From IMG/VR virus record IMGVR_UViG_3300028840_006907, positions 1 through 64,000 of that record: a DNA stretch of 64,000 nucleotides, one strand, 5' to 3'. A program made the translations under genes and the position numbers. This DNA is from a virus. Under the pieces are notes generated by a model. That model saw only the letters and a program-made list of their open reading frames with translations, was not told the origin of the DNA and searched no databases. Each line of letters starts with the position of its first letter. Position 1 is the stretch's first letter. Positions 3,737 to 64,000 of the stretch are shown one piece after another.

Positions 3737-4030
3737 TTAGGCTAACATATAAGTTGTTCTAAACCAATCTTTTACCATTTCATTTTCTACACAGATATAA
3801 GCGTAAGCTTTTTCTTTTTCAAAAAACCAATATGCCACAAATACATCAGCGAAACCTGCTTCTTCTATCATTTTTTTCAAATAATATTTATTTATTTTAA
3901 TAAATTTTCCTTTATCAGAATCATCATAATCTAAAGTAAGAGTAAATTGAGGTTCAGCTTGAACTTTATTTGATACGAAATAGACCCCTTTTTCTAAAAA
4001 GTTTAAATTTCTAATTAATCTTTGTTCCAT
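3737..4030 (-). CDS. hypothetical protein
   Basis: 97-aa ORF. Confidence 0.45.
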   Translation of the reverse strand: MEQRLIRNLNFLEKGVYFVSNKVQAEPQFTLTLDYDDSDKGKFIKINKYYLKKMIEEAGFADVFVAYWFFEKEKAYAYICVENEMVKDWFRTTYMLA

Positions 4031-4032
4031 AA

Positions 4033-4224
4033 TTAATTGGGCAATCTCCTATCAGGATAAAAGGTTTCTTCGAGTTTGCCTTTTATTACTTTTTGTGTTA
4101 AGATAAGTATCTCTAAACGTTCTATATGTTCTTTATTCGTTGTCATATGTTTTTTTATTTCATGGGGATCTGCCGTGATCTCATCCCCGCATACAGGACA
4201 ACATAATTTTAATTTTTTATTCAT
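4033..4224 (-). CDS. small zinc-ribbon protein
   Basis: CCPVCG motif; start moved to internal ATG abutting upstream stop at 4217. Confidence 0.4.
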   Translation of the reverse strand: MNKKLKLCCPVCGDEITADPHEIKKHMTTNKEHIERLEILILTQKVIKGKLEETFYPDRRLPN

Positions 4225-5053
4225 AATCAATTTCTTCCGATAAGAGTAATTTGAAAAATGTTTCAGCCAATTCTTGTTCAAAGAATTTTGGCTCTCGAAT
4301 TTTTATAGTATCAAGCTTTAATAGATCTGCAAATGAATCAATTTTGATATCAATCTCTGGATCTATTAAAGGTTGACACCATTCCATCTCTTTCAACATA
4401 TCTGGTGTGAGAAATGTTTTTGCAATAAAAATATCCCCTAAATCTTCCAGGGCCAAGACTCCCATTCGAATATTTAAATAGCAATAACCATCTTTCATAG
4501 CATATTCTTTATTGCTATTTAAGATTAATCCGACTAGGATATCAGCACTAGTTGGGTCAGTTTTATAAATCCTTTTTAAATCCTCTGTGAGGGGGCTGTA
4601 TGCCCTTGGATCCACTCGTTCTTCTAGTCGCTCAATGCAGTGTGAGGTGACGAAGATATTCCCACAGGAGCCCCTATTCGGGCTCCCATACAATATCCCG
4701 CTATTTTTTATTTTATATACTCTATTGAAGTTAGTTTGGTAGGAAGCATTCCCTACACCTTTGAATTTTATATTGGTTAAGTTTATCCAGCGACCATATT
4801 TAGATCTTAATTTTTGTAGGATTTTTTCTTTTATGGCTTTTTGTTTTCGTTGAGGAATTCTTTTTTTCTGGTAATTTTTTCCACATATTTCATCGAATGT
4901 GCGGGACCAGATGATACTTATCATTGCATCTGGATGTTCTTCGAACGTTGATACGTTATCTTTACCGAAATGTTTTTTTAAAAGTTTTAGGTAATAATTT
5001 TCTTCTTCTTTGCCGTATTTGCTTACTATCCATTGAGAGGGATTCTTTTTCAC
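4217..5053 (-). CDS. hypothetical protein
   Basis: 278-aa ORF overlapping SpoVG-like gene stop by 4 nt. Confidence 0.5.
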   Translation of the reverse strand: MKKNPSQWIVSKYGKEEENYYLKLLKKHFGKDNVSTFEEHPDAMISIIWSRTFDEICGKNYQKKRIPQRKQKAIKEKILQKLRSKYGRWINLTNIKFKGVGNASYQTNFNRVYKIKNSGILYGSPNRGSCGNIFVTSHCIERLEERVDPRAYSPLTEDLKRIYKTDPTSADILVGLILNSNKEYAMKDGYCYLNIRMGVLALEDLGDIFIAKTFLTPDMLKEMEWCQPLIDPEIDIKIDSFADLLKLDTIKIREPKFFEQELAETFFKLLLSEEIDYE

Positions 5054-5307
5054 TTGTTTAGCTCCGCTTCGTATTCATCTAATACGGCATTTTCAATAAG
5101 TATTCTGGTTTCATTTTGTATTGGATGTACCATATCTACAATTTTACCAGTTTTTGTTTTTCTGCTTGGCATTGCTACAAAGTGCCCTTGCGCTCCTTCA
5201 ATAATTTTCAATCCTCGGACAATAAAGCAATCATCAAGAACAATATCAACAAAAGCTCTTACATTTCTGCTTCTATGCATTGTTACTTTTATTTCAGTAA
5301 TTTCCAA
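5050..5307 (-). CDS. spoVG: SpoVG-family nucleic-acid-binding protein
   Basis: MEITEIKV...FVAMPSRKT...HPIQNETR matches the conserved SpoVG core along its length. Confidence 0.85.
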   Translation of the reverse strand: MEITEIKVTMHRSRNVRAFVDIVLDDCFIVRGLKIIEGAQGHFVAMPSRKTKTGKIVDMVHPIQNETRILIENAVLDEYEAELNK

Positions 5308-5352
5308 TTTTTGCCTCCTTAAATACAGAGCAAATATTACTACGAAATGAGA

Positions 5353-6360
5353 TTAATCTACCCATTGAATTTTTCTACGGTACTGACCTGTTACTTCATC
5401 TATATCAGAGACATTTCCTGCTTCCTTTACTATTAAATTTAATTTACGTTTTAATTCTAGCTGAAGATCATCACTTTTTATTATTTCGGGAGAAGTATGT
5501 TTCTCCAAAAAATTATTTTTTAAATCAAGCAATTGTTTTTCAATGCTCACATCTCCAACAAAATTGAGTTCTGAAAAATCATCAATAAATTTTTTAAGTG
5601 AATTAATAGTAGGGCCTTTAACAATTTTCCCTGATTTCATATTGGTGGCGATTTTATCACAAAGAGTTACTACTTGTTCACGAAGATTTGTAACAACCTC
5701 ATTGATAAAAGAACCAATCTTTTCTTGGGCCTCTTTCTGATAAACATCGTAGGCAATATTCTCTTTTGCAATTTTATCTTCAGAAACTTTTCTCATTTTC
5801 GGTAGAGCAATTTCAAATATATTCCAGGTTAAAGAGAACCTATTTCTTAATGAAGTTGTGCTTGGATAGTATGATTTTATTCGGTCAAGAAAATTTGTGA
5901 CGAATTCTTCCTCTTCGTTTTCTTTACCTTCAATACTGAATTCATGAACACCTATTTTTGTTTGTCGGTTATAGGCAGCTTTGGCTGCTTCCTCATAAAT
6001 AGGTAGCATCTCTTTTCGTAATTTGTCGTAATCAACAATCAGGTTATCGATTAATTTATTATATGCCTCCTGATATTCCTGAAGAGTTTGCAGTATTTTT
6101 AAAAATTTCTTTTTGGGTACAAACCGTGCTGAACTTATAGGGAATTTAAAACTGTTCGTCTCAACTAGAAACCGAGCTTTACTTTCAATAGATCTGAATT
6201 TATGTATGGTTTCTTTTGGAACGAGCATCTTCTTACCAAGAAGATAAACATTAGATATAGTGTCTTTTTCTAATCCCAAGTCTTGAGCAGTCAGGATTTT
6301 TGCTCCAGTCCAGAACCGCACTTTAATTTCAACTAAAACACCATCTTTAAATATATCCAT
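5353..6360 (-). CDS. DUF3150-like protein (plasmid/phage-associated)
   Basis: N-terminal VLVEIKVRFWTGAKILTAQDLGL pattern recalled as typical of DUF3150; 335 aa. Confidence 0.4.
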   Translation of the reverse strand: MDIFKDGVLVEIKVRFWTGAKILTAQDLGLEKDTISNVYLLGKKMLVPKETIHKFRSIESKARFLVETNSFKFPISSARFVPKKKFLKILQTLQEYQEAYNKLIDNLIVDYDKLRKEMLPIYEEAAKAAYNRQTKIGVHEFSIEGKENEEEEFVTNFLDRIKSYYPSTTSLRNRFSLTWNIFEIALPKMRKVSEDKIAKENIAYDVYQKEAQEKIGSFINEVVTNLREQVVTLCDKIATNMKSGKIVKGPTINSLKKFIDDFSELNFVGDVSIEKQLLDLKNNFLEKHTSPEIIKSDDLQLELKRKLNLIVKEAGNVSDIDEVTGQYRRKIQWVD

Positions 6361-6386
6361 AATTATTTTCCTATCATTAATAAGTG

Positions 6387-6420
6387 CTGTCCCTTTAATG
6401 AAAAAGGGACAGTGTTTTTT
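6387..6420 (+). terminator. hairpin plus T-run oriented for plus-strand transcription
   Basis: ctgtcccttt...aagggacag stem followed by tgtttttt, overlapping stop of 6419-7981 gene. Confidence 0.35.
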
Positions 6421-7981
6421 ATAAGTTTAATTTCCTTTTACCTATTACCTGTTCAGCCTTCATCTCTATTGAAGCTTTTTTCACTCTACGTTTTTCAGAC
6501 CATTCACGGCCTTTCTTAATATCCTCGGCATAAAGCTGTGCTGTAAGTGATACTTCTTTAGCACTTGTAACAAGATCTTCAGTGGAGATTTCCTGATTTT
6601 TGCTGAATGAAAATTTCAGAGTATCATTAATCCAAACTTCAATTTCAGATCCACTAAAATCTTTAGTGGATTTAACTAATTGCTTTATGTCGAAGTTGCT
6701 GGGGTCACGATTTATTTTTCCCAAATGTATTGAGATAATTTTCTCTCGTTCACTATCATAAGGGAAATCAACCCAGAAGATTGCATCCATACGACCACCA
6801 CGAATTAGTTCAGGAGGTAGTTTCGTTGCATCGTTTGAAGTAGCTGCAATGAATACATCAGTTGTTCTTTCAGCCATCCAGGTTAAAAGTGTTGCTAGCA
6901 TTTTTTGAGAAGTCTCATGAACATGCCCACTTTTATTATTAGGAAAAGCTTTTTCGATTTCATCTATTCGTAAGACACAGGGAGCATTTGCATCAACGAT
7001 ACTGAGACATCTTCTTATTTTCTCTTCTGATTCTCCTACAAGACTGCCTAAGAGTGCACCTACATCAAGACTGAATAATGGTCGTTCCCAAACATTGGCG
7101 ATAACTTTTGCAACAAGAGATTTCCCGGTTCCAGGAGGGCCTACGAATAGGGCACCTTTGGGAGGAAGTATTCCATATTCTCTGGCTTTCTCAGTGAAAC
7201 AATTCTTTCTAACCAGGAGCCATTCTTTAAGGTTATCAAGTCCACCAATGTCATCAAGAGTTTCTGTTACACTAATAACATTTAAGAGCCCTGTGTTTTT
7301 AACAACTGTGGCTTTTTCTCTATTAATAACATTAATGTCAAGACATTTTCTTTCAACAATGGAAAGAGAATAAGCATTCTCAGCTTCATCAGATGTCATT
7401 CCTAAGGCTGCTTCAATAAGGGAAGTATCGTTTTTGGGGTACTCTATGGAATCTTCAACTGATCTAGCGTTTTCATAAGCTCGTTGACATACTTTTCTTA
7501 AAGTATTTGTATTTGGAAGTTTAAAATCAATTACAGTTATTTCTTTCTTTAATTCATCTGGTATTGATGAACAGCAAGAAACAACAGCCAAAACTCTACC
7601 GGTAGATCTGCAGATTGGAATTATATTTCGTATTTTTCGTTGAATAAAATCTTTTTTAATATAATGGTGGAAATCTAATAGAAAAAAGATAGAATTCTCT
7701 TCCACCTCTTCTGAACTTATCCAATTAAGAGCCAACATTGGATCATCTGTTTTAGTTTTTATATCTAATTTATTTTCTAAAAGGATATTATTATCATTTA
7801 TTTCTCGGAGTTTGATTCCATCAACTCTGTCCCAAGAATAAAATTTATAATTTCCTTTGTCAAGTTTGTTCATTTCATTTGCTAGGGTTCTTATCGCCCT
7901 ATGTTCTTCATGGGTCTGTATCCACAAAATTGTATAACCGGCACGTATATAATTTGAAAAGATGTGTTCTTTATTTTCCAT
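6419..7981 (-). CDS. AAA+ ATPase with N-terminal domain of unknown function
   Basis: Walker A GPPGTGKS, Walker B VLRIDEIEKA, sensor region TSNDATKLPPELIRGGRMD. Confidence 0.85.
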   Translation of the reverse strand: MENKEHIFSNYIRAGYTILWIQTHEEHRAIRTLANEMNKLDKGNYKFYSWDRVDGIKLREINDNNILLENKLDIKTKTDDPMLALNWISSEEVEENSIFFLLDFHHYIKKDFIQRKIRNIIPICRSTGRVLAVVSCCSSIPDELKKEITVIDFKLPNTNTLRKVCQRAYENARSVEDSIEYPKNDTSLIEAALGMTSDEAENAYSLSIVERKCLDINVINREKATVVKNTGLLNVISVTETLDDIGGLDNLKEWLLVRKNCFTEKAREYGILPPKGALFVGPPGTGKSLVAKVIANVWERPLFSLDVGALLGSLVGESEEKIRRCLSIVDANAPCVLRIDEIEKAFPNNKSGHVHETSQKMLATLLTWMAERTTDVFIAATSNDATKLPPELIRGGRMDAIFWVDFPYDSEREKIISIHLGKINRDPSNFDIKQLVKSTKDFSGSEIEVWINDTLKFSFSKNQEISTEDLVTSAKEVSLTAQLYAEDIKKGREWSEKRRVKKASIEMKAEQVIGKRKLNL

Positions 7982-7998
7982 TTTTCAATTCCTTGAAT

Positions 7999-8202
7999 TT
8001 AAAATTGATTGACTATCTGCTTTATTACTAAAATTCTATTAAGGATTTTATTGTAGGATAGATTTAATTCGTTTTGAATATCTTTAAATGAATAGTTATT
8101 CAGAAAATAAAAAGATGCTATAGTATAAGTTATCCTATCTACTTTTGACTTTAAATAATTCATAATGTCTTTGGAATAATTATTTGCATGTGGCATATTC
8201 AT
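7999..8202 (-). CDS. sigma-70 region-4-like HTH protein
   Basis: ITYTIASFYFLNNYSFKDIQNELNLSYNKILNRI is paralogous to C-terminus of 8180-8800 product. Confidence 0.35.
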   Translation of the reverse strand: MNMPHANNYSKDIMNYLKSKVDRITYTIASFYFLNNYSFKDIQNELNLSYNKILNRILVIKQIVNQF

Positions 8203-8800
8203 TATCCTTTGACTTTGAAAACTTATATACTATTTGTTTAATTTTTGTAATTTTTCTGAGGATTGTATTGTAGGATACTTTTGCAGTATCTTGAATTTCT
8301 TTCATTGAATAACAATCCAGAAGATAAAGACATGCAATGAAATAAGTTATATCATTGAGTTGATTTCTTAGATATTTCATGGTTTCATCAGAGATCAAAG
8401 TATCATCTATTGTTTCGTTAAAGTTAGGCCGGGTAGTATAATCAATATGATTTTTAAGGGTTTTATTATTATTCCTTTCTTCACCATCACTATTATTTTC
8501 ACGCATTGTGATATACATATCAATAGGGAAAAATTTAGGTCTTCGTGATATTGTTCTTATGTAATGAAGGGCATAGCCTTGAACTTTATGTACAAAATAT
8601 GTTTTTAAATAACATCCTTTTGAAAGATCATATTGTTCAAGTAACTCGGATTCAGCTAGTTTTAAAATGAGGTGTTGAAACATCTCACATGGTTCAACAA
8701 TTTTCACAAATTTCATAATGTGAAAATTTAAAATATAATCAATTTCTTCTCTGTTTAGGGTATAGAATTCCCAGAAGTCAGGGTGATATTTTAAATCCAT
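8180..8800 (-). CDS. putative sigma-factor-like transcription protein
   Basis: C-terminal ITYFIACLYLLDCYSMKEIQDTAKVSYNTILRKI resembles sigma-70 region 4.2 HTH. Confidence 0.4.
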   Translation of the reverse strand: MDLKYHPDFWEFYTLNREEIDYILNFHIMKFVKIVEPCEMFQHLILKLAESELLEQYDLSKGCYLKTYFVHKVQGYALHYIRTISRRPKFFPIDMYITMRENNSDGEERNNNKTLKNHIDYTTRPNFNETIDDTLISDETMKYLRNQLNDITYFIACLYLLDCYSMKEIQDTAKVSYNTILRKITKIKQIVYKFSKSKDNEYATCK

Positions 8801-8809
8801 AATAAAACC

Positions 8810-9064
8810 TCATTTTGTGAGACCATCAATTTCTTTCTGGACATTGGTCCAATATTCATGGTCGGTTCCGTTTCCTTTAATTGTGTTAATTTTTTCTCGA
8901 ATCCTTTTTGTTTCTTTCGAGATTTGTCTTTGTGTATTTATGTTTGAAACAGCTCTGTCAGATAGATCATGTGACAGAGCATCAAATGATTTTCCTATAG
9001 CATTCATGATCTTTCTAAGAAAGATCAGTATAGCGATAAGTCCGATAAATGCTAAAAGGGCCAT
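8810..9064 (-). CDS. small membrane protein
   Basis: N-terminal hydrophobic helix ALLAFIGLIAILIFL. Confidence 0.4.
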   Translation of the reverse strand: MALLAFIGLIAILIFLRKIMNAIGKSFDALSHDLSDRAVSNINTQRQISKETKRIREKINTIKGNGTDHEYWTNVQKEIDGLTK

Positions 9065-9220
9065 GTAAGCCTCCTTTATTTTTAACCACAGTATGGATTA
9101 ATGTTAAAACATTTTTCCTTTTTATTTTTATTGCATTTCTCTTTGCATAGAGTACATAAAACCGGAGCAATTTTCGGGTGAAACCATGGACTGAATACCC
9201 GCTCACCGTCGAATACTAAT

Positions 9221-9499
9221 TCAATAGGTGTTAAAATCTCTGTTTTCTTCTTCATTATCTACCTCTGTATCTTGATAATACTCTGATTTCATTTCTCTAT
9301 TTTCTGTTTTATTACCAAAGGCTTTTTCAATAAATTCAGTTTTTTCAATACATTCATTACCTACAAAGCCCTCAGTTTCTTTATGGACAGTTTTACCATC
9401 CCATTCAAATGTTAATTTTATTTCAGGCATTGTTTTCATTCCTTTTTTGATTTGCTTCTTCAAATAGTTTGATAATAGTGCTATCATGAATAAATTCAT
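9221..9499 (-). CDS. hypothetical protein (start uncertain)
   Basis: ORF overlaps upstream gene; internal Met likely true start. Confidence 0.3.
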   Translation of the reverse strand: MNLFMIALLSNYLKKQIKKGMKTMPEIKLTFEWDGKTVHKETEGFVGNECIEKTEFIEKAFGNKTENREMKSEYYQDTEVDNEEENRDFNTY

Positions 9500-9743
9500 G
9501 TTCTTTTATAAAACCATGCTCTTCAAAAGTACTTCTTATTCCATGCATGATTAAATTGTAACGATTCATTAAGTCAGGAATTTTATCATCGGATTTAAGA
9601 ATGTTTATCATTTTCTTTCTATGTTTAATATTTATAATGATTGAGGTAATCATAATAGCAATAATAAAAGCCACAATAGAAAAAACTATTGTCATTACTA
9701 TACTTACATCTTGTAGAAAAAATTTTTGAATATTATTATACAT
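9423..9743 (-). CDS. membrane protein
   Basis: Hydrophobic helix VMTIVFSIVAFIIAIMITSIII. Confidence 0.4.
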   Translation of the reverse strand: MYNNIQKFFLQDVSIVMTIVFSIVAFIIAIMITSIIINIKHRKKMINILKSDDKIPDLMNRYNLIMHGIRSTFEEHGFIKEHEFIHDSTIIKLFEEANQKRNENNA

Positions 9744-10134
9744 AAGCTCTTAATACTATACGATCCTCTTCATCAACAGTTTCTTCATAACTTAAACACA
9801 TTGAATCATATTCTGATTTGGCCCTTTCAACATTATAATAAGTGAAAAGTTTCTTCTGCCACTCTTCACCATATCCATTTGCTTCATCAATATGAGCTAT
9901 ATAATTTCCTTCAACAGTTTGTTCAAAACCGAAGTCATTATGGTAATTACCAATATGTTCTTTACGGATAATAATATGACCTAGTTTTTCTGTTGGATTT
10001 CCTTGCCAATCATTTAACTTATTTGCTATATCAAATATCTCAATCTGCTCCTCGGTAAAACCCATTCGAATCAAGGCTTTAACCAAAGAATCTTTATCGT
10101 TGATTATTGTCACTATGTCAACGTAATGACTCAT
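9736..10134 (-). CDS. hypothetical protein
   Basis: 132-aa ORF. Confidence 0.5.
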   Translation of the reverse strand: MSHYVDIVTIINDKDSLVKALIRMGFTEEQIEIFDIANKLNDWQGNPTEKLGHIIIRKEHIGNYHNDFGFEQTVEGNYIAHIDEANGYGEEWQKKLFTYYNVERAKSEYDSMCLSYEETVDEEDRIVLRAYV

Positions 10135-10281
10135 ACATTTTCCTCGCTCTGATATTGTAAGTTTAATAATTTGAGGTAGTAAGGTTTAAAATAAACAGGA
10201 ATAAAAAACCTGTCAACACTTTTTTAATTGAGATCAATTAAAAATTTTTTACCTAGAAAAATACCTCAATTTAATCGATTT

Positions 10282-10761
10282 TTATTGATGATGCTCGATG
10301 GAATTTCCTCGAAAAAAAGGATTCGAAAATGTTCCATCTTCATCACCGGTGAAATATACCCAACCACTGTCAACGAAATTAAATTTATTACTTAAATATT
10401 TATATTTTCGTTCAAAAGCTTCTCTATCGGTATAAATAATACAAGTTAAAGCGCTGACTGTGTGGGGGTGTTCTTCTATAAATTCAGAATCCAGATCTTT
10501 TTTTTCTGATTCATAGGATAAAAGATCTGCAATTAATATAAAAGCATTGTATTTAGCGGTTAATTGTTTGAATTGTTTTCTGAATTTCGTTATATCTTCA
10601 GCAGTAATTAAATCAATATCATAAAAGATAAGCTCATATTTATCTGTTACTCCAAAAAGCATAGGAGGTAGGTTCTCAGTTGCTACCAATTGCGCCTTAG
10701 AATCCTTAATACATTCTTGAGCTTTCTCTTTTAACATCTTTAAATCCATCATTATACGCAA
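10282..10761 (-). CDS. hypothetical protein
   Basis: 159-aa ORF overlapping upstream gene end. Confidence 0.5.
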   Translation of the reverse strand: MRIMMDLKMLKEKAQECIKDSKAQLVATENLPPMLFGVTDKYELIFYDIDLITAEDITKFRKQFKQLTAKYNAFILIADLLSYESEKKDLDSEFIEEHPHTVSALTCIIYTDREAFERKYKYLSNKFNFVDSGWVYFTGDEDGTFSNPFFRGNSIEHHQ

Positions 10762-11786
10762 ACCTTTTCATTTAATTTTTTAACAATCTTTTTGTTTGTT
10801 AATCTTTCAAGTTCGCCATCCAATATATCATCATAAGCAGTCTTATCTTTACCTGGAATGATGTCCCAGGCATATGTTCCGTAATTTTCCTGTACATGTT
10901 GCATCAGATTTTTGATTTCAACTACTTCATCATCATTGAGGTAACCCAAAACATATGCAACACCAACTTTTGTAGGTAACCCATATTTACAGATTAATTC
11001 AATGGGAGCAAAGGCATCATCGGAAAATTTATTTTCCAAGACACAGATACTGGCTTCTGCAGTATGTCCTGCTTCGATATATCCTTTTAATTGTTTAGCC
11101 TCTTTTCGTAATGTACTGGCATTTATATCCTTCTTAACCAGATAATCGACAATTTCTTCTGGCAATCCGTATTTCTGGATTTCCTTTCTTAATTCATTCT
11201 CAATCTCGATCTCAGTATTTTCTTCTTCATAATTAGATAAATCATTTGCTAGCCCTCTCATATTAGGAGAGAGTTCTGGATAATACTTATAGATAGTATT
11301 CAGGAAAAGCATCCGTTTAACAATACTGGCTTTTTTATGGAGTTGATATTGAATCTTCATATACTGAATAAAATTGGAACGTAAAGTGTTATCAGTATCC
11401 AGAGCTTCGGGAGCCCATCTTAAATCAGAGTCAATGATGTTACCACTCTGCCATTCCTGAAACCAGGCAAAATATATCTGATTATTTTCTTTGTCTCTTT
11501 TATATTTGAGATCTTTATCAATGAATCGAACTTTGAATTGATTCATAGGATCATTGGGATCATCAATTGTTCTGACTCTTCGTGCCATCCTTTTTTCATG
11601 TATGATACGTTCAAATCTCTCTTCAACTTCATCCTGGGATAACATTCTAAGAGGTCTGAATATAAATTCAAATATTTGATAAATAACATAGAGTATGAAA
11701 CTACCAACAATGAGGTAAATCATATCATACTGTAATTTATCTGTCTTATTCTGTTTAGGTGCTGTTGGAGGTAAATTACTTTTCAT
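10752..11786 (-). CDS. membrane-anchored protein
   Basis: 344 aa; hydrophobic helix IYLIVGSFILYVIYQIF near N-terminus; overlaps upstream gene. Confidence 0.5.
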   Translation of the reverse strand: MKSNLPPTAPKQNKTDKLQYDMIYLIVGSFILYVIYQIFEFIFRPLRMLSQDEVEERFERIIHEKRMARRVRTIDDPNDPMNQFKVRFIDKDLKYKRDKENNQIYFAWFQEWQSGNIIDSDLRWAPEALDTDNTLRSNFIQYMKIQYQLHKKASIVKRMLFLNTIYKYYPELSPNMRGLANDLSNYEEENTEIEIENELRKEIQKYGLPEEIVDYLVKKDINASTLRKEAKQLKGYIEAGHTAEASICVLENKFSDDAFAPIELICKYGLPTKVGVAYVLGYLNDDEVVEIKNLMQHVQENYGTYAWDIIPGKDKTAYDDILDGELERLTNKKIVKKLNEKVCV

Positions 11787-12096
11787 CGGTTCTGTATTCC
11801 TTTATATATTTTTGTTTTGAATTTCGGTATACTTCTTGAACTCTTTTCTTTAATTCTTTACTATCGATATATCCAGTGGATTTTAAATCTCTGATAACTC
11901 GTAATTTTGATCTATTATATTTTTCGATTTCATAAGTACTGACTGAGTTATGTGATTTATTGACCGCCCAGTCACAGGCGAATTTTCCACAACAGAGTAA
12001 TAGTAATAATAAACCTATTCTTATGCCCATTCCAATAATCATAAAGATCGGATTAACATTCTTTTTCATATTTTCGAAACGTTCATCGGCATACAT
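11776..12096 (-). CDS. small membrane protein
   Basis: Helix IFMIIGMGIRIGLLLLLLCCG. Confidence 0.45.
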   Translation of the reverse strand: MYADERFENMKKNVNPIFMIIGMGIRIGLLLLLLCCGKFACDWAVNKSHNSVSTYEIEKYNRSKLRVIRDLKSTGYIDSKELKKRVQEVYRNSKQKYIKEYRTDEK

Positions 12097-12355: not shown

Positions 12356-13540
12356 TTATCCTCTTACATAATCAGTTACACAGTTAATTTCATCATCACT
12401 TATCCAGGCACCGTGATATCGTTCAGGTTCAGAAGCACCAGGATAAATCATTAACATATCTCCCTTACCGGCCAGAGCTTCAGCTCCATTGCAATCAAGA
12501 ATAACTCTGGAATCATTTTTGGATGATACTTGGAATGAGATCCTTGAAGGCATATTGGATTTAATAAGACCAGTGATAACTTTAACGATAGGCTTTTGAG
12601 TTGCAAGTACCAGATGGATACCTACTGCTCTGGCTAATTGAGCCAACCGTACGATCATTTTCTCAAGTTCTTTACCTGAAGTCATCATAAGATCAGCCAT
12701 CTCATCAACCACAGTTACTATATAAGGAAGTTTTGTATCGGAATTTTTATTAAAACTTTCGATATTTCTTACTCGATAATCAGCTAAGAGTTTATATCTA
12801 CGATCCATTTCTTCAATTAAATCTGAGAACACATGCACCGCTTCTGAGGGCTCGGTAACCACAGGGCATCTCAGGTGGGATAAATTATTATATGACGCCA
12901 TTTCCACTCTCTTGGGATCGACAAGGACAAGCTGGCATTCATCTGGTGTTCGAGTAAATAATATTGAAAGAAGAATACTATTTATACATACAGATTTACC
13001 TGATCCAGTTTGACCTGCGATTAAAAGATGAGGCATAGTAGTCAAATCGATTATTTTTGGATTACCAATAGTATCGGTTCCAAGTACGATGGGAATCTTG
13101 GTATTGGAATCAGTGGTAAAGATATCACGGAAACCGATAATGGATCTTGTTTCATTCATCATTTCTATTCCAACACAAGCTGTACCTGGAATGGGTGCTT
13201 GGATTCTGATATTGGATGACATTAAAGCCATTGCGATATCTTCAGTGATCTTTTTAATCTGAGCAATCCTTACACCTTTTGATAATTTCAGTTCATATCG
13301 GGTAACCACTGGGCCATGTTTAATATCCTGGACAGCAGTATCGAATCCAAGTTCAGCGATCCTGTTTTCAAGATCATGAGAGCTTAAACTGTTGGGTATT
13401 CTATTGGATGAATACTCGTTTAAGAGTCCTAAATGAGGTTTTCTATATCTTTTGTTTTTCTTCTTTTTACATGCATCTTCCTCGGAATTAAGGAGTTGCA
13501 TTACATTTAAGAGCTTTCTGAATTTTGTTGATTTGTTCAT
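12356..13540 (-). CDS. FtsK/SpoIIIE-family DNA translocase motor (alpha/beta domains only)
   Basis: GPVVTRYEL, APIPGT..VGIE, Walker A GQTGSGKS, Walker B VVDEMADLMM; no N-terminal TM or gamma domain. Confidence 0.8.
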   Translation of the reverse strand: MNKSTKFRKLLNVMQLLNSEEDACKKKKNKRYRKPHLGLLNEYSSNRIPNSLSSHDLENRIAELGFDTAVQDIKHGPVVTRYELKLSKGVRIAQIKKITEDIAMALMSSNIRIQAPIPGTACVGIEMMNETRSIIGFRDIFTTDSNTKIPIVLGTDTIGNPKIIDLTTMPHLLIAGQTGSGKSVCINSILLSILFTRTPDECQLVLVDPKRVEMASYNNLSHLRCPVVTEPSEAVHVFSDLIEEMDRRYKLLADYRVRNIESFNKNSDTKLPYIVTVVDEMADLMMTSGKELEKMIVRLAQLARAVGIHLVLATQKPIVKVITGLIKSNMPSRISFQVSSKNDSRVILDCNGAEALAGKGDMLMIYPGASEPERYHGAWISDDEINCVTDYVRG

Positions 13541-23279: not shown

Positions 23280-23499
23280 TTATTGTACCTTCTAAAGAAA
23301 TATGTGAATTGAATCCTTTAGAGAAATATTGTGCTGGGTTAAATTTAAAAATTGCTATTCCTCCTATTGCCACAAGAAAAATAAAGAGAATGATTCTCCC
23401 GATCTTTCTTGGCAATTCTTTTCTTCGACGTTTAGCCATAAAATCTTTTTCATTTATTTTCATTATTATCCTCATTATTATCCTCATTATTATCCTCAT
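23269..23499 (-). CDS. small membrane protein with N-terminal (MRII)n repeat
   Basis: 12-nt tandem repeat encodes MRIIMRIIMRIIM; then basic stretch and TM helix; start set to first ATG. Confidence 0.35.
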   Translation of the reverse strand: MRIIMRIIMRIIMKINEKDFMAKRRRKELPRKIGRIILFIFLVAIGGIAIFKFNPAQYFSKGFNSHISLEGTINEK

Positions 23500-23508
23500 T
23501 ATTATTAA
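23461..23508. repeat. 12-bp tandem repeat, about 4 copies
   Basis: cattattatcct x3 plus one degenerate copy. Confidence 0.9.
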
Positions 23509-46877: not shown

Positions 46878-48008
46878 TTAACCAACAAGATCTAAGATCT
46901 TATCAAGGGTTTCATTCTTTTCTTTCATTTGAACTGTAGGATTAGGATTATGTGAAGTCTCTTCAGGAGATTCAATTAATTCCAATACAGTTTCGAGAGC
47001 ATTGGATTTTAATTGAGCACCACTACCTACCCACGCACTATCGGCACGGGCTTGTTCTTGAGTAGTATATCCAGACGTAGATGTTACTCTACTAGGTCTT
47101 TTATGATCCACGTAATTAGTAACAGCATTCACCAAAGCCATACCCGTTCCAGCTTGTTCCGGGATAGCATTATCATCATTATCATTAAATAGTTTAGCTA
47201 TCTCAAGGGCTTTATCAGATTTCTTATCTGATTGTTCCCATTTCTCACCAAAGATACGAGTCATAGTCTGTGCAAAAAGTTCTTTGGTAACTTTATGAGT
47301 AATAATCTTTTCAAACTTTTCTTTAAGAGAATTTATATCCTGTTTTAATCCGGTTTGAATCTCAGTGGTTATTTTATTAAGTTTCTCTTTAGCACCTTTG
47401 GTATGTCTTACTTTAATCATTGCATCCTTAGTGCCTTTAGATAAGGCAAAATTCAAAGTGTTCTGACATACTACCCGTACATCGGTGAGCATAATTGTAT
47501 TACTCATAGTTCCATCATGAGCACTCATAAACATGATAAATGTTTCGTGTTTATCATTTCCGATGGAAGCGTTAAAGGGGACACGGGCCAAAGCCCAGAC
47601 ACGTTCTCCACGTCCTAAAACTCCGGCAGCTTCATAATGTGCACCATCAATCTGTTCTAAGACATTATCAATCCATCCACCGATTTCAATATTTTGCGTA
47701 GGTTCATAGGTATTACCTACGATACCAAGGGCGCTTTCCTTACCAGTTAAATCGGAACGAAAGATACCAAATTGATTCGGGAAAACATATCCTTTAGGTA
47801 CAGTGCTTCCAGGTTTCCATAAAGGATTCTTAAAGAATAACGGCCTTTTTTCGACCGTCCAATCTAATTGAGCCAGTTCATAAGCTTCTTTCCAGGTCAT
47901 TGCATGATTGACCATTTGTCCTAGTTCATGCCACGGTAAACCATGTTCATCTATGGCATATGCAGCCGATACTAAACCGTTTTTTGCTGTAAATAAATTA
48001 TGAGCCAT
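46878..48008 (-). CDS. DUF932-like phage/plasmid protein
   Basis: N-terminal AYAIDEHGLPWHELG...MTWKEAYELAQLDWTVEKRPL pattern recalled as typical of DUF932. Confidence 0.5.
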   Translation of the reverse strand: MAHNLFTAKNGLVSAAYAIDEHGLPWHELGQMVNHAMTWKEAYELAQLDWTVEKRPLFFKNPLWKPGSTVPKGYVFPNQFGIFRSDLTGKESALGIVGNTYEPTQNIEIGGWIDNVLEQIDGAHYEAAGVLGRGERVWALARVPFNASIGNDKHETFIMFMSAHDGTMSNTIMLTDVRVVCQNTLNFALSKGTKDAMIKVRHTKGAKEKLNKITTEIQTGLKQDINSLKEKFEKIITHKVTKELFAQTMTRIFGEKWEQSDKKSDKALEIAKLFNDNDDNAIPEQAGTGMALVNAVTNYVDHKRPSRVTSTSGYTTQEQARADSAWVGSGAQLKSNALETVLELIESPEETSHNPNPTVQMKEKNETLDKILDLVG

Positions 48009-48274
48009 TGAAAGACTCCTTTCATGATAAGGGTTCCACTAACTTATTAAAGTCAGCTATTATAGTTATTTGGGTTTTTTATTTACTATGAGGGATTGAC
48101 CAGACTATAAAGAGCATTGCCTTTATTATCAGTCTGGCCTGTTTTCTTCCAGAGACCGAAAGAACTATTTATATATTCAGGTTCAGTCTCTACACCATGT
48201 AATCTGATATATTCAGACCATGAATATTCAGACCATGAAGTAGTGCAGACAGGGGGAGAAGGGAAAGCAATCAT

Positions 48275-51517: not shown

Positions 51518-51572
51518 AATATTTCCCCTTGTCTAATGTATATATTAACAGTCAATTATTTTTTTCTGTTGT

Positions 51573-51940
51573 CATGAATAATGAAAAAAGTTTAGTAACT
51601 TTCCGAAGTTTTAAGAAACTTTTTCTTTGACGTTTGTTTTTTGTGGCTTTCATGAGTAATGAAAAAAGTTTAGTAACTTTCCGAAGTTTTAAAAATTTTT
51701 TCTTTCATGTAAACTTTTCCTTGTCTACATGAGTAATGAAAAAAGTTTAGTAACTTTCCGAAGTTTTAAAAATTTTTTCTTTCATGTAAACTTTTCCTTG
51801 TCTACATGAGTAATGAAATTAGTTTGGTAACTTTCCGAAGTTTTAAAAATTTTTTCTTTCATGTAAACTTTTCCTTGTCTACATGAGTAATGAAATTAGT
51901 TTGGTAACTTTCCGGAAAAAATTGTAAAAACGCTATTTTC
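51573..51940. repeat. 77-bp tandem direct repeats, about 4.4 copies
   Basis: Units begin at 51573 (degenerate), 51651, 51728, 51805, 51882 (partial). Confidence 0.95.
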
Positions 51941-52312
51941 CTTTATATAGGGGAGAGCCAGAAATCGCCCGTTTGATGTGCGTGATATATACGCCCGAAA
52001 ATGTTCCCGGTTCTAACCCCCCAGTGAAATACCCTTTCCACAAAAGTGAAATACCCCAATACAACTATACCATACCCGACCATACCCCACCCCCGGGACC
52101 TGTCTTCGGGATCATCATCATGCGCTTGCTTTTCGTGCGCTCAATGCCATACCCACCCCCTTTTTGTAAAGATTTTTGGAAGTTGGAAATGGATGGAGTT
52201 AGATTGGATTTTTTGGATGGTAGAAAATTTTGGCTGGTGGGAGAGACCCCACAGTAAAGTACCCGGTTGGTTCAGGGAAGTACCAATATGGTTCAGTGGA
52301 GTGTCTTTTTTG

Positions 52313-52370
52313 TGGCGCATATCCTGTTATAGTGGCGCATATTCTATTATAATGGCGCATATTTCAGTTC
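52313..52370. repeat. three direct GTGGCGCATAT boxes at about 20-bp spacing
   Basis: gtggcgcatatcctgttata / gtggcgcatattctattata / atggcgcatatttcagttca. Confidence 0.9.
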
Positions 52371-52397
52371 AAAGCTCTCAGAACCCAGTTCAAAGAA

Positions 52398-52628
52398 CAG
52401 GGAACAGGGAACTGAGCACAGGGAACTGAGCACAGGGAACCGAGCACAGGGAACCGAGCACAGGGAACTGAGCACAGGGAACTGAGCACAGGGAACTGAG
52501 CACAGGGAACCGAGCACAGGGAACCGAGCACAGGGAACTGAGCACAGGGAACCGAGCACAGGGAACTGAGAACAGGGAACCGAGCACAGGGAACTGAGAA
52601 CAGGGAACTGAGAACAGGGAACCGAGCA
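52398..52628. repeat. 14-bp tandem repeat array, 16 copies, GC-rich
   Basis: CAGGGAAC(T/C)GAGCA with T/C and C/A variants; partial copy then units from 52405. Confidence 0.95.
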
Positions 52629-52872
52629 CCTGTATCTGTGATCTCGGAAAAGTTTCGGGAAAAAAATCGGGAACGGCTCAGGGCTGAGAAATAGGTATGA
52701 ATTTTTTTGGGGTATAATTTTTGGAGTTAAACAGTTGGGGAAATTGGAGTTATCTTATGTGAGGTGATGGGATAGTTTATGGAGGGTGAAAATTTTTTGG
52801 TATAGTTTGATGGAGAAACAGGTATAATACTTATAGGACGGAAAAATTTAAGTCTAATGGTTCGAGGATCTT

Positions 52873-63838: not shown

Positions 63839-64000
63839 ATGGAACAAGAGATGTTACATGGAATTAATATCATGGAATTCGGGAATACTATTCAGATAGC
63901 TGGTATTATCATGAATAGCGATAGTATGTCTTATTTGATCCCGTTGCCCGATGATGATATCTTGGAAGCAAAGAATTTCCCACTTGATACTGATCAGTGG
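63839..64000 (+). CDS. hypothetical protein (partial, runs off window end)
   Basis: ATG at 63839 preceded by AGAAGGAA; open to window end. Confidence 0.35.
   Translation, partial: MEQEMLHGINIMEFGNTIQIAGIIMNSDSMSYLIPLPDDDILEAKNFPLDTDQW

Follow-up and report, generated by a model that had tools for sequence, protein, structure and literature searches.

The window analyzed here (64,000 nucleotides, nt; positions 1 to 64,000 of the IMG/VR virus record IMGVR_UViG_3300028840_006907) is part of an element of approximately 469 kb and encodes, at 5353-6360 on the minus strand, a DUF3150-family protein whose gene lies immediately downstream of that for an AAA ATPase. As judged by profile and profile-profile comparison, the window carries the full four-gene set AAA, DUF1257, DUF2997, and DUF3150, which recurs in distant lineages. 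A AAA+ ATPase, belonging to one or the other of two cassette types, lies beside or a few genes from DUF3150 in 14 of 15 separate loci. The favored reading, to which we assign a probability of roughly 0.55, is that DUF3150 assists the adjacent AAA+ motor as a partner without catalytic activity. The cassette and its surroundings contain the following features (aa, amino acids; ORF, open reading frame):

5050-5307, minus strand: SpoVG homologue, 85 aa (PF04026, 6.2e-29; NF009749, 89 bits, under its cut-off of 108)
5353-6360, minus strand: DUF3150-family protein, 335 aa, ATG start
6387-6412, minus strand: stem-loop with a perfect 10-bp stem in the 58-nt AAA-DUF3150 spacer, with no U-tract after it
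6419-7981, minus strand: AAA ATPase of the classic clade, 520 aa (PF00004, 4.3e-30; phrog_8638, 1.7e-120)
7999-8202, minus strand: 67-aa ORF, similar to the helix-turn-helix at the C-terminus of the neighboring 206-aa protein
8180-8800, minus strand: weakly sigma-70/ECF-like protein, 206 aa (TIGR02937, 27.4 bits, under its cut-off of 42.9)
9221-9430, minus strand: DUF2997 protein, 69 aa (PF11211, 36.4 bits versus a cut-off of 24.1)
9736-10134, minus strand: divergent DUF1257 (Ycf35-like) protein, 132 aa, with an N-terminal MSH motif, assigned by profile-profile comparison
12356-13540, minus strand: FtsK/SpoIIIE-type motor, 394 aa (PF01580, 1.5e-54; PF17854, 3.5e-22)

The DUF3150 protein

The initial annotation had assigned the 5353-6360 product a DUF3150-like N-terminus on the strength of a short motif, and the assignment is borne out by PF11348, which matches the protein with an E-value of 8.7e-11 (42 bits versus a gathering score of 24.9). 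The quoted motif is contained in residues 17-30, which read WTGAKILTAQDLGL. Across 46 aligned homologues Trp17 is invariant, and Leu23 and Asp27 are conserved in at least 90%; among the 19 closest homologues Gly19, Lys21, Asp27, Leu28, and Gly29 are invariant. A precomputed PF11348 hit is present in all but one of 76 homologues. The match spans residues 8-195 and profile positions 5-160 of 257, which is the N-terminal two-thirds of the profile only. By tblastn, the DUF3150 protein of a Manganitrophus plasmid aligns with residues 2-310 (92% of the length; E-value 3e-12), and other plasmid DUF3150 proteins align with the first ~110-270 residues only. Conserved residues are chiefly hydrophobic or structural, and no catalytic motif is evident in the protein. 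PHROGs holds no family for it, and in the literature searched DUF3150 occurs only in passing in one preprint and PF11348 in none.

According to structure prediction, the protein has a small N-terminal beta-sheet and a long helical bundle, modeled with confidence (pLDDT 89.8). The top match in a Foldseek search of BFVD is an uncultured phage "DUF3150 domain-containing protein" (E-value 9.9e-10), and five of the eight matches having E-values of at most 1e-3 reach TM scores of ~0.5-0.7. Among solved structures no fold match was obtained for this protein or for the DUF932 protein encoded elsewhere in the window, and PDB sequence searches were empty for both.

A four-gene cassette in distant lineages

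The AAA protein consists of an N-terminal domain of ~260 aa followed by a single AAA domain, which is nearest to CDC48, FtsH, and PAN-type unfoldases; AAA_5 scores 20.6 bits, under its cut-off. All lineages retain Walker A and Walker B (DE), the pore-1 loop ([YL]VG), and the arginines of the second region of homology, and because these ATPase motifs are intact, the window AAA is likely to be an active hexameric protein-remodeling motor.

The neighborhoods of DUF3150 homologues down to 26% identity were compared, which gave the 15 separate loci referred to above. A AAA orthologue is found immediately upstream of DUF3150 in the window (L001), in contigs of 512 kb (L002) and 66 kb (L003), in a KSB1-binned contig (L013), and in L008 and L009, the last two with DUF3150 proteins only 26-29% identical to that of the window. 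The AAA orthologue is at most three genes away from DUF3150 in L004 and in two plasmids of Ca. Manganitrophus, L011 and L018. The gene order is AAA-DUF1257-DUF2997-DUF3150 in L004, L011, and L018 and AAA-DUF3150-x-DUF1257-DUF2997 in L009, and in the window it is DUF1257-x-DUF2997, further genes, sigma-like, AAA, DUF3150. Linkage has thus been kept despite gene shuffling, which argues for a common function.

The two small members are recognized to different degrees. DUF2997 orthologues adjoin AAA in L002-L004, L009, L011, L013, and L018, and none does so in L008. The 9736-10134 product has no direct Pfam match; hhalign of its alignment (A3) against Pfam-positive DUF1257 proteins from other loci gives a probability of 97% (E-value 9.3e-11). 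The N-terminal MSH tripeptide is invariant in both groups, and a faint match to DUF1257 is precomputed for the L003 orthologue.

Loci L008 and L009 carry a weak terminase-like (GpA_ATPase) hit together with RNA ligase, Thg1, and SbcCD-like genes, and relatives of the terminase-like protein are found on contigs of 184-188 kb. Judged by these genes, the lineage is a phage. Used as a query, the terminase-like protein matched contigs of that lineage only and not the element of the window. The AAA gene upstream of DUF3150 in L008 is in two pieces (5491-6471 and 7384-7995) with two small ORFs between them, which could reflect an insertion or a mobile intron.

The cassette is also matched by three circular Ca. 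Manganitrophus replicons of 199-329 kb that are filed as plasmids. In CP114559 and CP114562, for which the region was read, PGAP annotates all four genes consecutively, and CP114554 is matched by both the AAA and the DUF3150 proteins. The same four families stand together there as in the window, and the AAA proteins are 32-33% identical to the window AAA across 95% of the length. On the other hand, the gene order differs, and the window has the sigma-like gene and small ORFs inserted within the cassette. The cassette thus occurs in both phages and large plasmids, probably as a general accessory of large mobile elements. It is already annotated in public plasmid records, and the literature searched holds no description of it.

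The canonical plasmid cassette

Canonical DUF3150 belongs to a second type of cassette. In Vibrio pVgang, Pseudomonas CP102429, Pelobacter pPRO1, Allochromatium pAt1, and Geobacter pSD, a MoxR/CobS-like AAA+ protein of 320-370 aa is followed by DUF3150, with a VWA protein beside it (5 of 5). This canonical cassette often adjoins DNA-processing genes, such as those for RecT, lambda exonuclease, primase, and topoisomerase III. The pVgang DUF3150 protein matched 111 plasmid records, 71 of them conjugative, versus one record of the phage collection; this lone match, AB571791.1, is a 127,710-bp Salmonella Typhimurium entry and is probably a plasmid misfiled among phages.

As in the window, DUF3150 stands directly beside a AAA+ ATPase on a mobile element. 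The ATPases, however, belong to different clades (MoxR-like and 320-370 aa versus classic-clade and 520 aa). The plasmid cassette (MoxR/CobS-like, DUF3150, and a CobT-like VWA protein) lacks DUF1257 and DUF2997, whereas the window has both, and no VWA domain was found among the window ORFs scanned. The canonical DUF3150 proteins share ~22-27% identity with the window protein, mostly in the N-terminal third. By these comparisons the window protein is placed in a divergent branch, outside the canonical MoxR-VWA plasmid type.

The core without DUF3150

AAA, DUF1257, and DUF2997 also occur as a core from which DUF3150 is missing, as in Rhizobium phage vB_RleS_L338C, Aeromonas phage HJ05, and large plasmids of Paenibacillus and Pseudanabaena. 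On plasmids of Bacillus and Paenarthrobacter, AAA and DUF2997 have other partners, and the AAA gene is present in Corndog-type mycobacteriophages. Full-length AAA homologues are found on 68 plasmid records; at the five plasmid AAA loci read, DUF1257 and/or DUF2997 adjoin AAA in four (Paenibacillus, Bacillus, Paenarthrobacter, and Pseudanabaena). Like the window, the phages, plasmids, and cyanobacteria with this core have full-length AAA homologues (29-38% identity) beside DUF1257 and DUF2997. Unlike the window, the phage and plasmid cores have no detectable DUF3150, and their usual extras are 4Fe-4S single-cluster and helix-hairpin-helix proteins.

The cyanobacterial AAA relative of the core is presumably Ycf46. 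In cyanobacteria, a duf2997-ycf35(DUF1257)-fed7 gene cluster has been described (PMC4284462), and in the literature searched DUF2997 and DUF1257 appear solely as labels of cyanobacterial gene clusters. Among the plasmid loci (L025, L026, L028, and L024), those of Paenibacillus, Bacillus, and Paenarthrobacter were seen to combine AAA and DUF2997, with DUF1257 where annotated, and a 4Fe-4S single-cluster protein, a grouping that recalls the cyanobacterial one; in Bacillus and Paenarthrobacter a helix-hairpin-helix protein also accompanies AAA. In Treponema, the AAA gene has a "baseplate assembly protein V" on one side and a 4Fe-4S protein on the other.

A further side observation concerns Mycobacterium phage Dylan. 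A 275-aa protein of this phage gave a weak Foldseek match to the DUF3150 model (E-value 1e-2, TM score 0.32-0.37). It is equal in length to gp94 (L023, 4667-5494), whose gene comes next after AAA in Dylan. The match is no more than suggestive, and sequence profiles do not confirm a relationship.

Neighboring genes of the window cassette

The spacer between AAA and DUF3150 is predicted to form its stem-loop with an RNA folding energy of -17.5 kcal/mol (z = -4.8). The same spacer in L002 (~7941-7980) and L003 (~7944-7978) holds hairpins of unrelated sequence, and, through attenuation or an effect on mRNA stability, the hairpin may determine how much AAA is made relative to DUF3150.

Upstream of AAA, the 206-aa protein has orthologues in the cassette of the closest relatives (L002, L003, and L013), and Sigma70_r2 weakly matches the one in L002. 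As a phmmer query, the 206-aa protein matches an ORF corresponding to the 67-aa ORF at 5.7e-12; the latter may be a duplicated region-4 fragment. The 12356-13540 product comprises the FtsK alpha and FtsK_SpoIIIE ATPase domains, and orthologues are found near DUF3150 in L002, L003, and L010. Directly downstream of DUF3150, the SpoVG gene has a TTG start and a strong Shine-Dalgarno site. SpoVG is absent from this position in L002 and L003 and was seen there in the window element only.

DUF932, the repeat hub, and other features of the element

A second gene singled out by the initial annotation and a repeat-rich hub lie further along the window:

46878-48008, minus strand: DUF932/TIGR03299 protein, 376 aa (PF06067, TIGR03299, phrog_1221)
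51520-52870, no strand assigned: hub of ~1.35 kb with no convincing gene, between the leftward and rightward gene arrays
51573-51914: tandem array, 77 bp x 4.4
52313-52363: tandem array, 20 bp x 2.5
52404-52629: tandem array, 14 bp x 16

Here, too, the proposed family stands. PF06067 matches the protein over profile positions 1-227 of 227 (E-value 4.5e-45; 154.6 bits versus 23), and NCBIfam TIGR03299, "phage/plasmid-like protein," scores 204 bits against a cut-off of 110.7 (positions 8-311 of 312). The profile searches therefore accept both PF11348 and PF06067 for their respective proteins. With these full-length matches above curated cut-offs, and a phrog_1221 match of 2.8e-60, the protein is typical of its family. 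It matches 499 of 50,697 phage records (~1.0%) versus 101 of 72,556 plasmid records (0.14%), the phages being those of Mycobacterium (177), Streptomyces (114), Arthrobacter (50), and Gordonia (35), crAss-like phages, and others. Proteins of the family from actinophages, crAss-like phages, and actinobacterial and proteobacterial plasmids are 25-36% identical to it, and its closest relatives, at 58-76% identity, lie on short metagenomic contigs. By its matches, the DUF932 gene is unremarkable for its family, which is common among phages, and it is independent of the DUF3150 cassette.

The DUF932 gene of two phage-like contigs comes two or three genes after the point at which the gene arrays change strand and is preceded by a gap free of called genes of 0.5 kb (L021, 8144-10001) or 1.4 kb (L022, 8566-10001). 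In several actinophages it stands at a genome end. These positions hint at very early expression.

The three tandem arrays of the control hub reported initially do exist, between 51573 and 52629, and only short ORFs run over the repeats. The sign of the GC skew changes at the hub. Two independent assemblies break here. The ENA contig of the element (ERZ27256798 k141_1708087, 469,021 bp) starts at approximately 51862 of the window, and the JGI contig (3300017963 Ga0180437_10000019, 388,651 bp), on which the same genes are found, ends at approximately 51792; both points fall within the 77-bp array, through which the window sequence runs uninterrupted. Such assembly ends fit repeat-caused breaks in a circular or circularly permuted map. 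The hub may be an origin or a control region, or simply a repeat at which assemblies break, and no initiator gene is recognizable beside its arrays.

The window has a G+C content of ~32% and ~140 ORFs, mostly small, which use stop codons of all three types. Genes run leftward up to ~51.5 kb and rightward from ~52.9 kb. The window contains no tRNA genes and has zero Rfam matches. The window ORFs were scanned with Pfam and PHROG, and for the 10 kb on each side precomputed Pfam hits were used, so that the survey covered 84 kb, or ~18% of the element. The window also encodes the following products:

in the window: N6/N4 DNA methyltransferase
in the window: DprA-like protein
in the window: PAPS-reductase-like protein
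in the window: NAD-dependent epimerase/reductase
in the window: PKD-domain protein
in the window: GP88 protein
in the window: DUF5983 protein

The 84 kb surveyed hold no capsid, portal, terminase, or tail genes. Metagenomic contigs, the longest of 469,617 bp, encode the exact DUF3150 protein of the window, and homologues lie on contigs of 512 and 474 kb. No match was returned by megablast of positions 4000-12000, or by tblastn of the DUF3150 protein, against the 50,697 phage records (INPHARED), and scans of IMG/VR with the DUF3150 protein and with alignment A2 returned no relative. A scan of GTDB genomes with DUF3150 gave a single match, the 5.5-kb contig of a KSB1 metagenome-assembled genome (L013), and the element is therefore not commonly integrated. 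In gene content the element looks like a giant phage, and its phage identity is one that we infer from that content. A Borg-like archaeal element was considered and set aside solely because the gene types are bacterial (SpoVG, a sigma-70-like protein, and Shine-Dalgarno sites).

Perfect tandem repeats were noted at 23460-23505 (12 nt x 3.8) and at 48209-48239 (15 nt x 2.1), the latter inside a 62-aa ORF in which SWSEY is encoded twice. Just past window position 64000, the region L019 11023-20546 has genes for an HNH endonuclease and a family-2 glycosyltransferase, a 1,514-aa ORF that has no Pfam or PHROG match, and a radical-SAM gene split by an intein that carries a LAGLIDADG domain.

Proposed function and alternative explanations

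As a partner of the AAA+ motor, the DUF3150 protein would be mostly helical, would have no enzymatic activity, and would serve the ATPase encoded upstream of it as an accessory subunit, whether adaptor, regulator, or client. The small DUF1257 and DUF2997 proteins would be constant companions of AAA, with DUF3150 as an optional fourth component, and in the plasmid-typical second cassette the DUF3150 family would pair with a MoxR/CobS-like AAA+ motor and a VWA protein. The cassette may act early, as the DNA establishes itself in a new cell. This role is suggested because its neighbors here are early-type small ORFs and methyltransferase, DprA-, FtsK-, and sigma-like genes, and on plasmids are recombination and priming genes.

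Several observations weigh against such a partnership. One of the 15 loci, L010, has the order FtsK, a 197-aa gene, DUF3150, with AAA absent within 8 kb. The neighborhood sample is small, since these 15 loci compare with 4,576 representatives of the DUF3150 family. Pfam recognizes only the N-terminal part of the window protein. For isolated phages that have the AAA core, hmmsearch for DUF3150 found nothing, and hhalign against the product of the gene that follows AAA (Dylan gp94 and L338C gp051) was not significant. Moreover, a physical interaction between DUF3150 and the ATPase is something we infer from gene neighborhood alone, and the early timing, likewise, would follow from the company that the genes keep.

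It is possible, though we propose it tentatively, that AAA, DUF1257, DUF2997, and DUF3150 are the subunits of a AAA+ machine found in giant phages, in phages of ~185 kb, and on megaplasmids, with a core related to the Ycf46/Ycf35 pair of cyanobacteria and plastids. DUF3150 might then be a portable adaptor for two unrelated kinds of motor, classic-clade and MoxR-type, and serve to remodel a common target during the establishment of foreign DNA.

Two other functions can be set against that of a AAA+ partner. DUF3150 might be independent of AAA and, for example, assist the FtsK-like motor in DNA segregation or packaging, or be a structural or scaffold protein; the adjacency to AAA would then be a historical accident. 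The gene order of L010 fits such a role, an FtsK-like gene lies less than 6 kb from DUF3150 in the window, L002, and L003, and the long helical bundle of the model would be compatible with a scaffold. However, L004, L008, L009, and all of the plasmid loci have no FtsK nearby and yet each has a AAA+ ATPase, and two unrelated AAA+ clades as neighbors are hard to explain as chance; the presence of the family on plasmids also speaks against a role in the virion, and we regard an AAA-independent function as rather unlikely. Alternatively, the cassette could serve defense or counter-defense, as a AAA+ remodeler that disables host immunity or excludes competitors, a function compatible with a partnership of DUF3150 and AAA. 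It stands next to genes for a DNA methyltransferase and a DprA-like protein in arrays of tiny ORFs of early type, its spread over phages and plasmids is patchy, and according to a preprint a DUF932 gene on an integrated plasmid came under selection following phage attack (10.1101/2025.06.20.660599). Against this, PADLOC-DB 2.0 has no match for DUF3150, DUF2997, the DUF1257-like protein, or DUF932, and AAA matches there only the generic AAA domain of IetA; the relatives of the core, furthermore, are housekeeping genes of cyanobacteria and plastids (ycf46 and ycf35; PMC4284462). We regard a defensive function as likewise rather unlikely.

A separate question is that of lifestyle. The initial annotation took DUF3150 and DUF932 to be typical of plasmids and conjugative elements and saw in them, together with the tandem arrays, a hint of an episomal phage-plasmid; on this reading the arrays would be iterons. 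As to the families, this is true of canonical DUF3150, with its plasmid bias of 111 records to one, and does not hold for DUF932, which is commoner in phage than in plasmid records (499 versus 101), or for the DUF3150 branch of the window, the cassette of which is found also on contigs that encode a terminase-like protein. Because both gene types occur in phages and plasmids, an episomal lifestyle does not follow from the families. The FtsK-like translocase nearby and the circular replicons of Ca. Manganitrophus filed as plasmids would suit a phage-plasmid, and the arrays sit at the skew switch, as iterons at an origin would. Nevertheless, a strand switch and GC-skew turn are where such repeats may be expected in the origin or control region of any large replicon, so that the hub by itself is no plasmid indicator, and its arrays have no flanking initiator gene. 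Integrase, resolvase, ParA/ParB, plasmid Rep, and conjugation genes all went undetected in the 84 kb surveyed. Like the element, the phage-plasmids P1, N15, and SSU5 are large and have a repeat-rich non-coding hub; their defining replication and partition genes, however, were not seen in the 84 kb, the element is several times larger than any of them, and the top organism groups among phage matches for DUF932 and AAA are not those of known phage-plasmids. We regard a phage-plasmid episome as quite improbable. Because the DUF932 family is common to phages and plasmids it is uninformative on lifestyle, and neither it nor DUF3150 distinguishes between a lytic, an integrated, and an episomal lifestyle of the ~469 kb element. 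As lifestyle markers the two genes are worthless, since neither separates phage from plasmid.

Significance of the AAA-DUF3150 linkage

The DUF3150 and DUF932 genes are new members of known, uncharacterized families, and their annotation is in itself routine. What the DUF3150 gene adds is its company: tied to a AAA+ ATPase in two cassettes, it provides a testable lead on four uncharacterized families, and the core of AAA, DUF1257, and DUF2997 joins phages and megaplasmids to the long-unexplained ycf35 and ycf46 of cyanobacteria and plastids.

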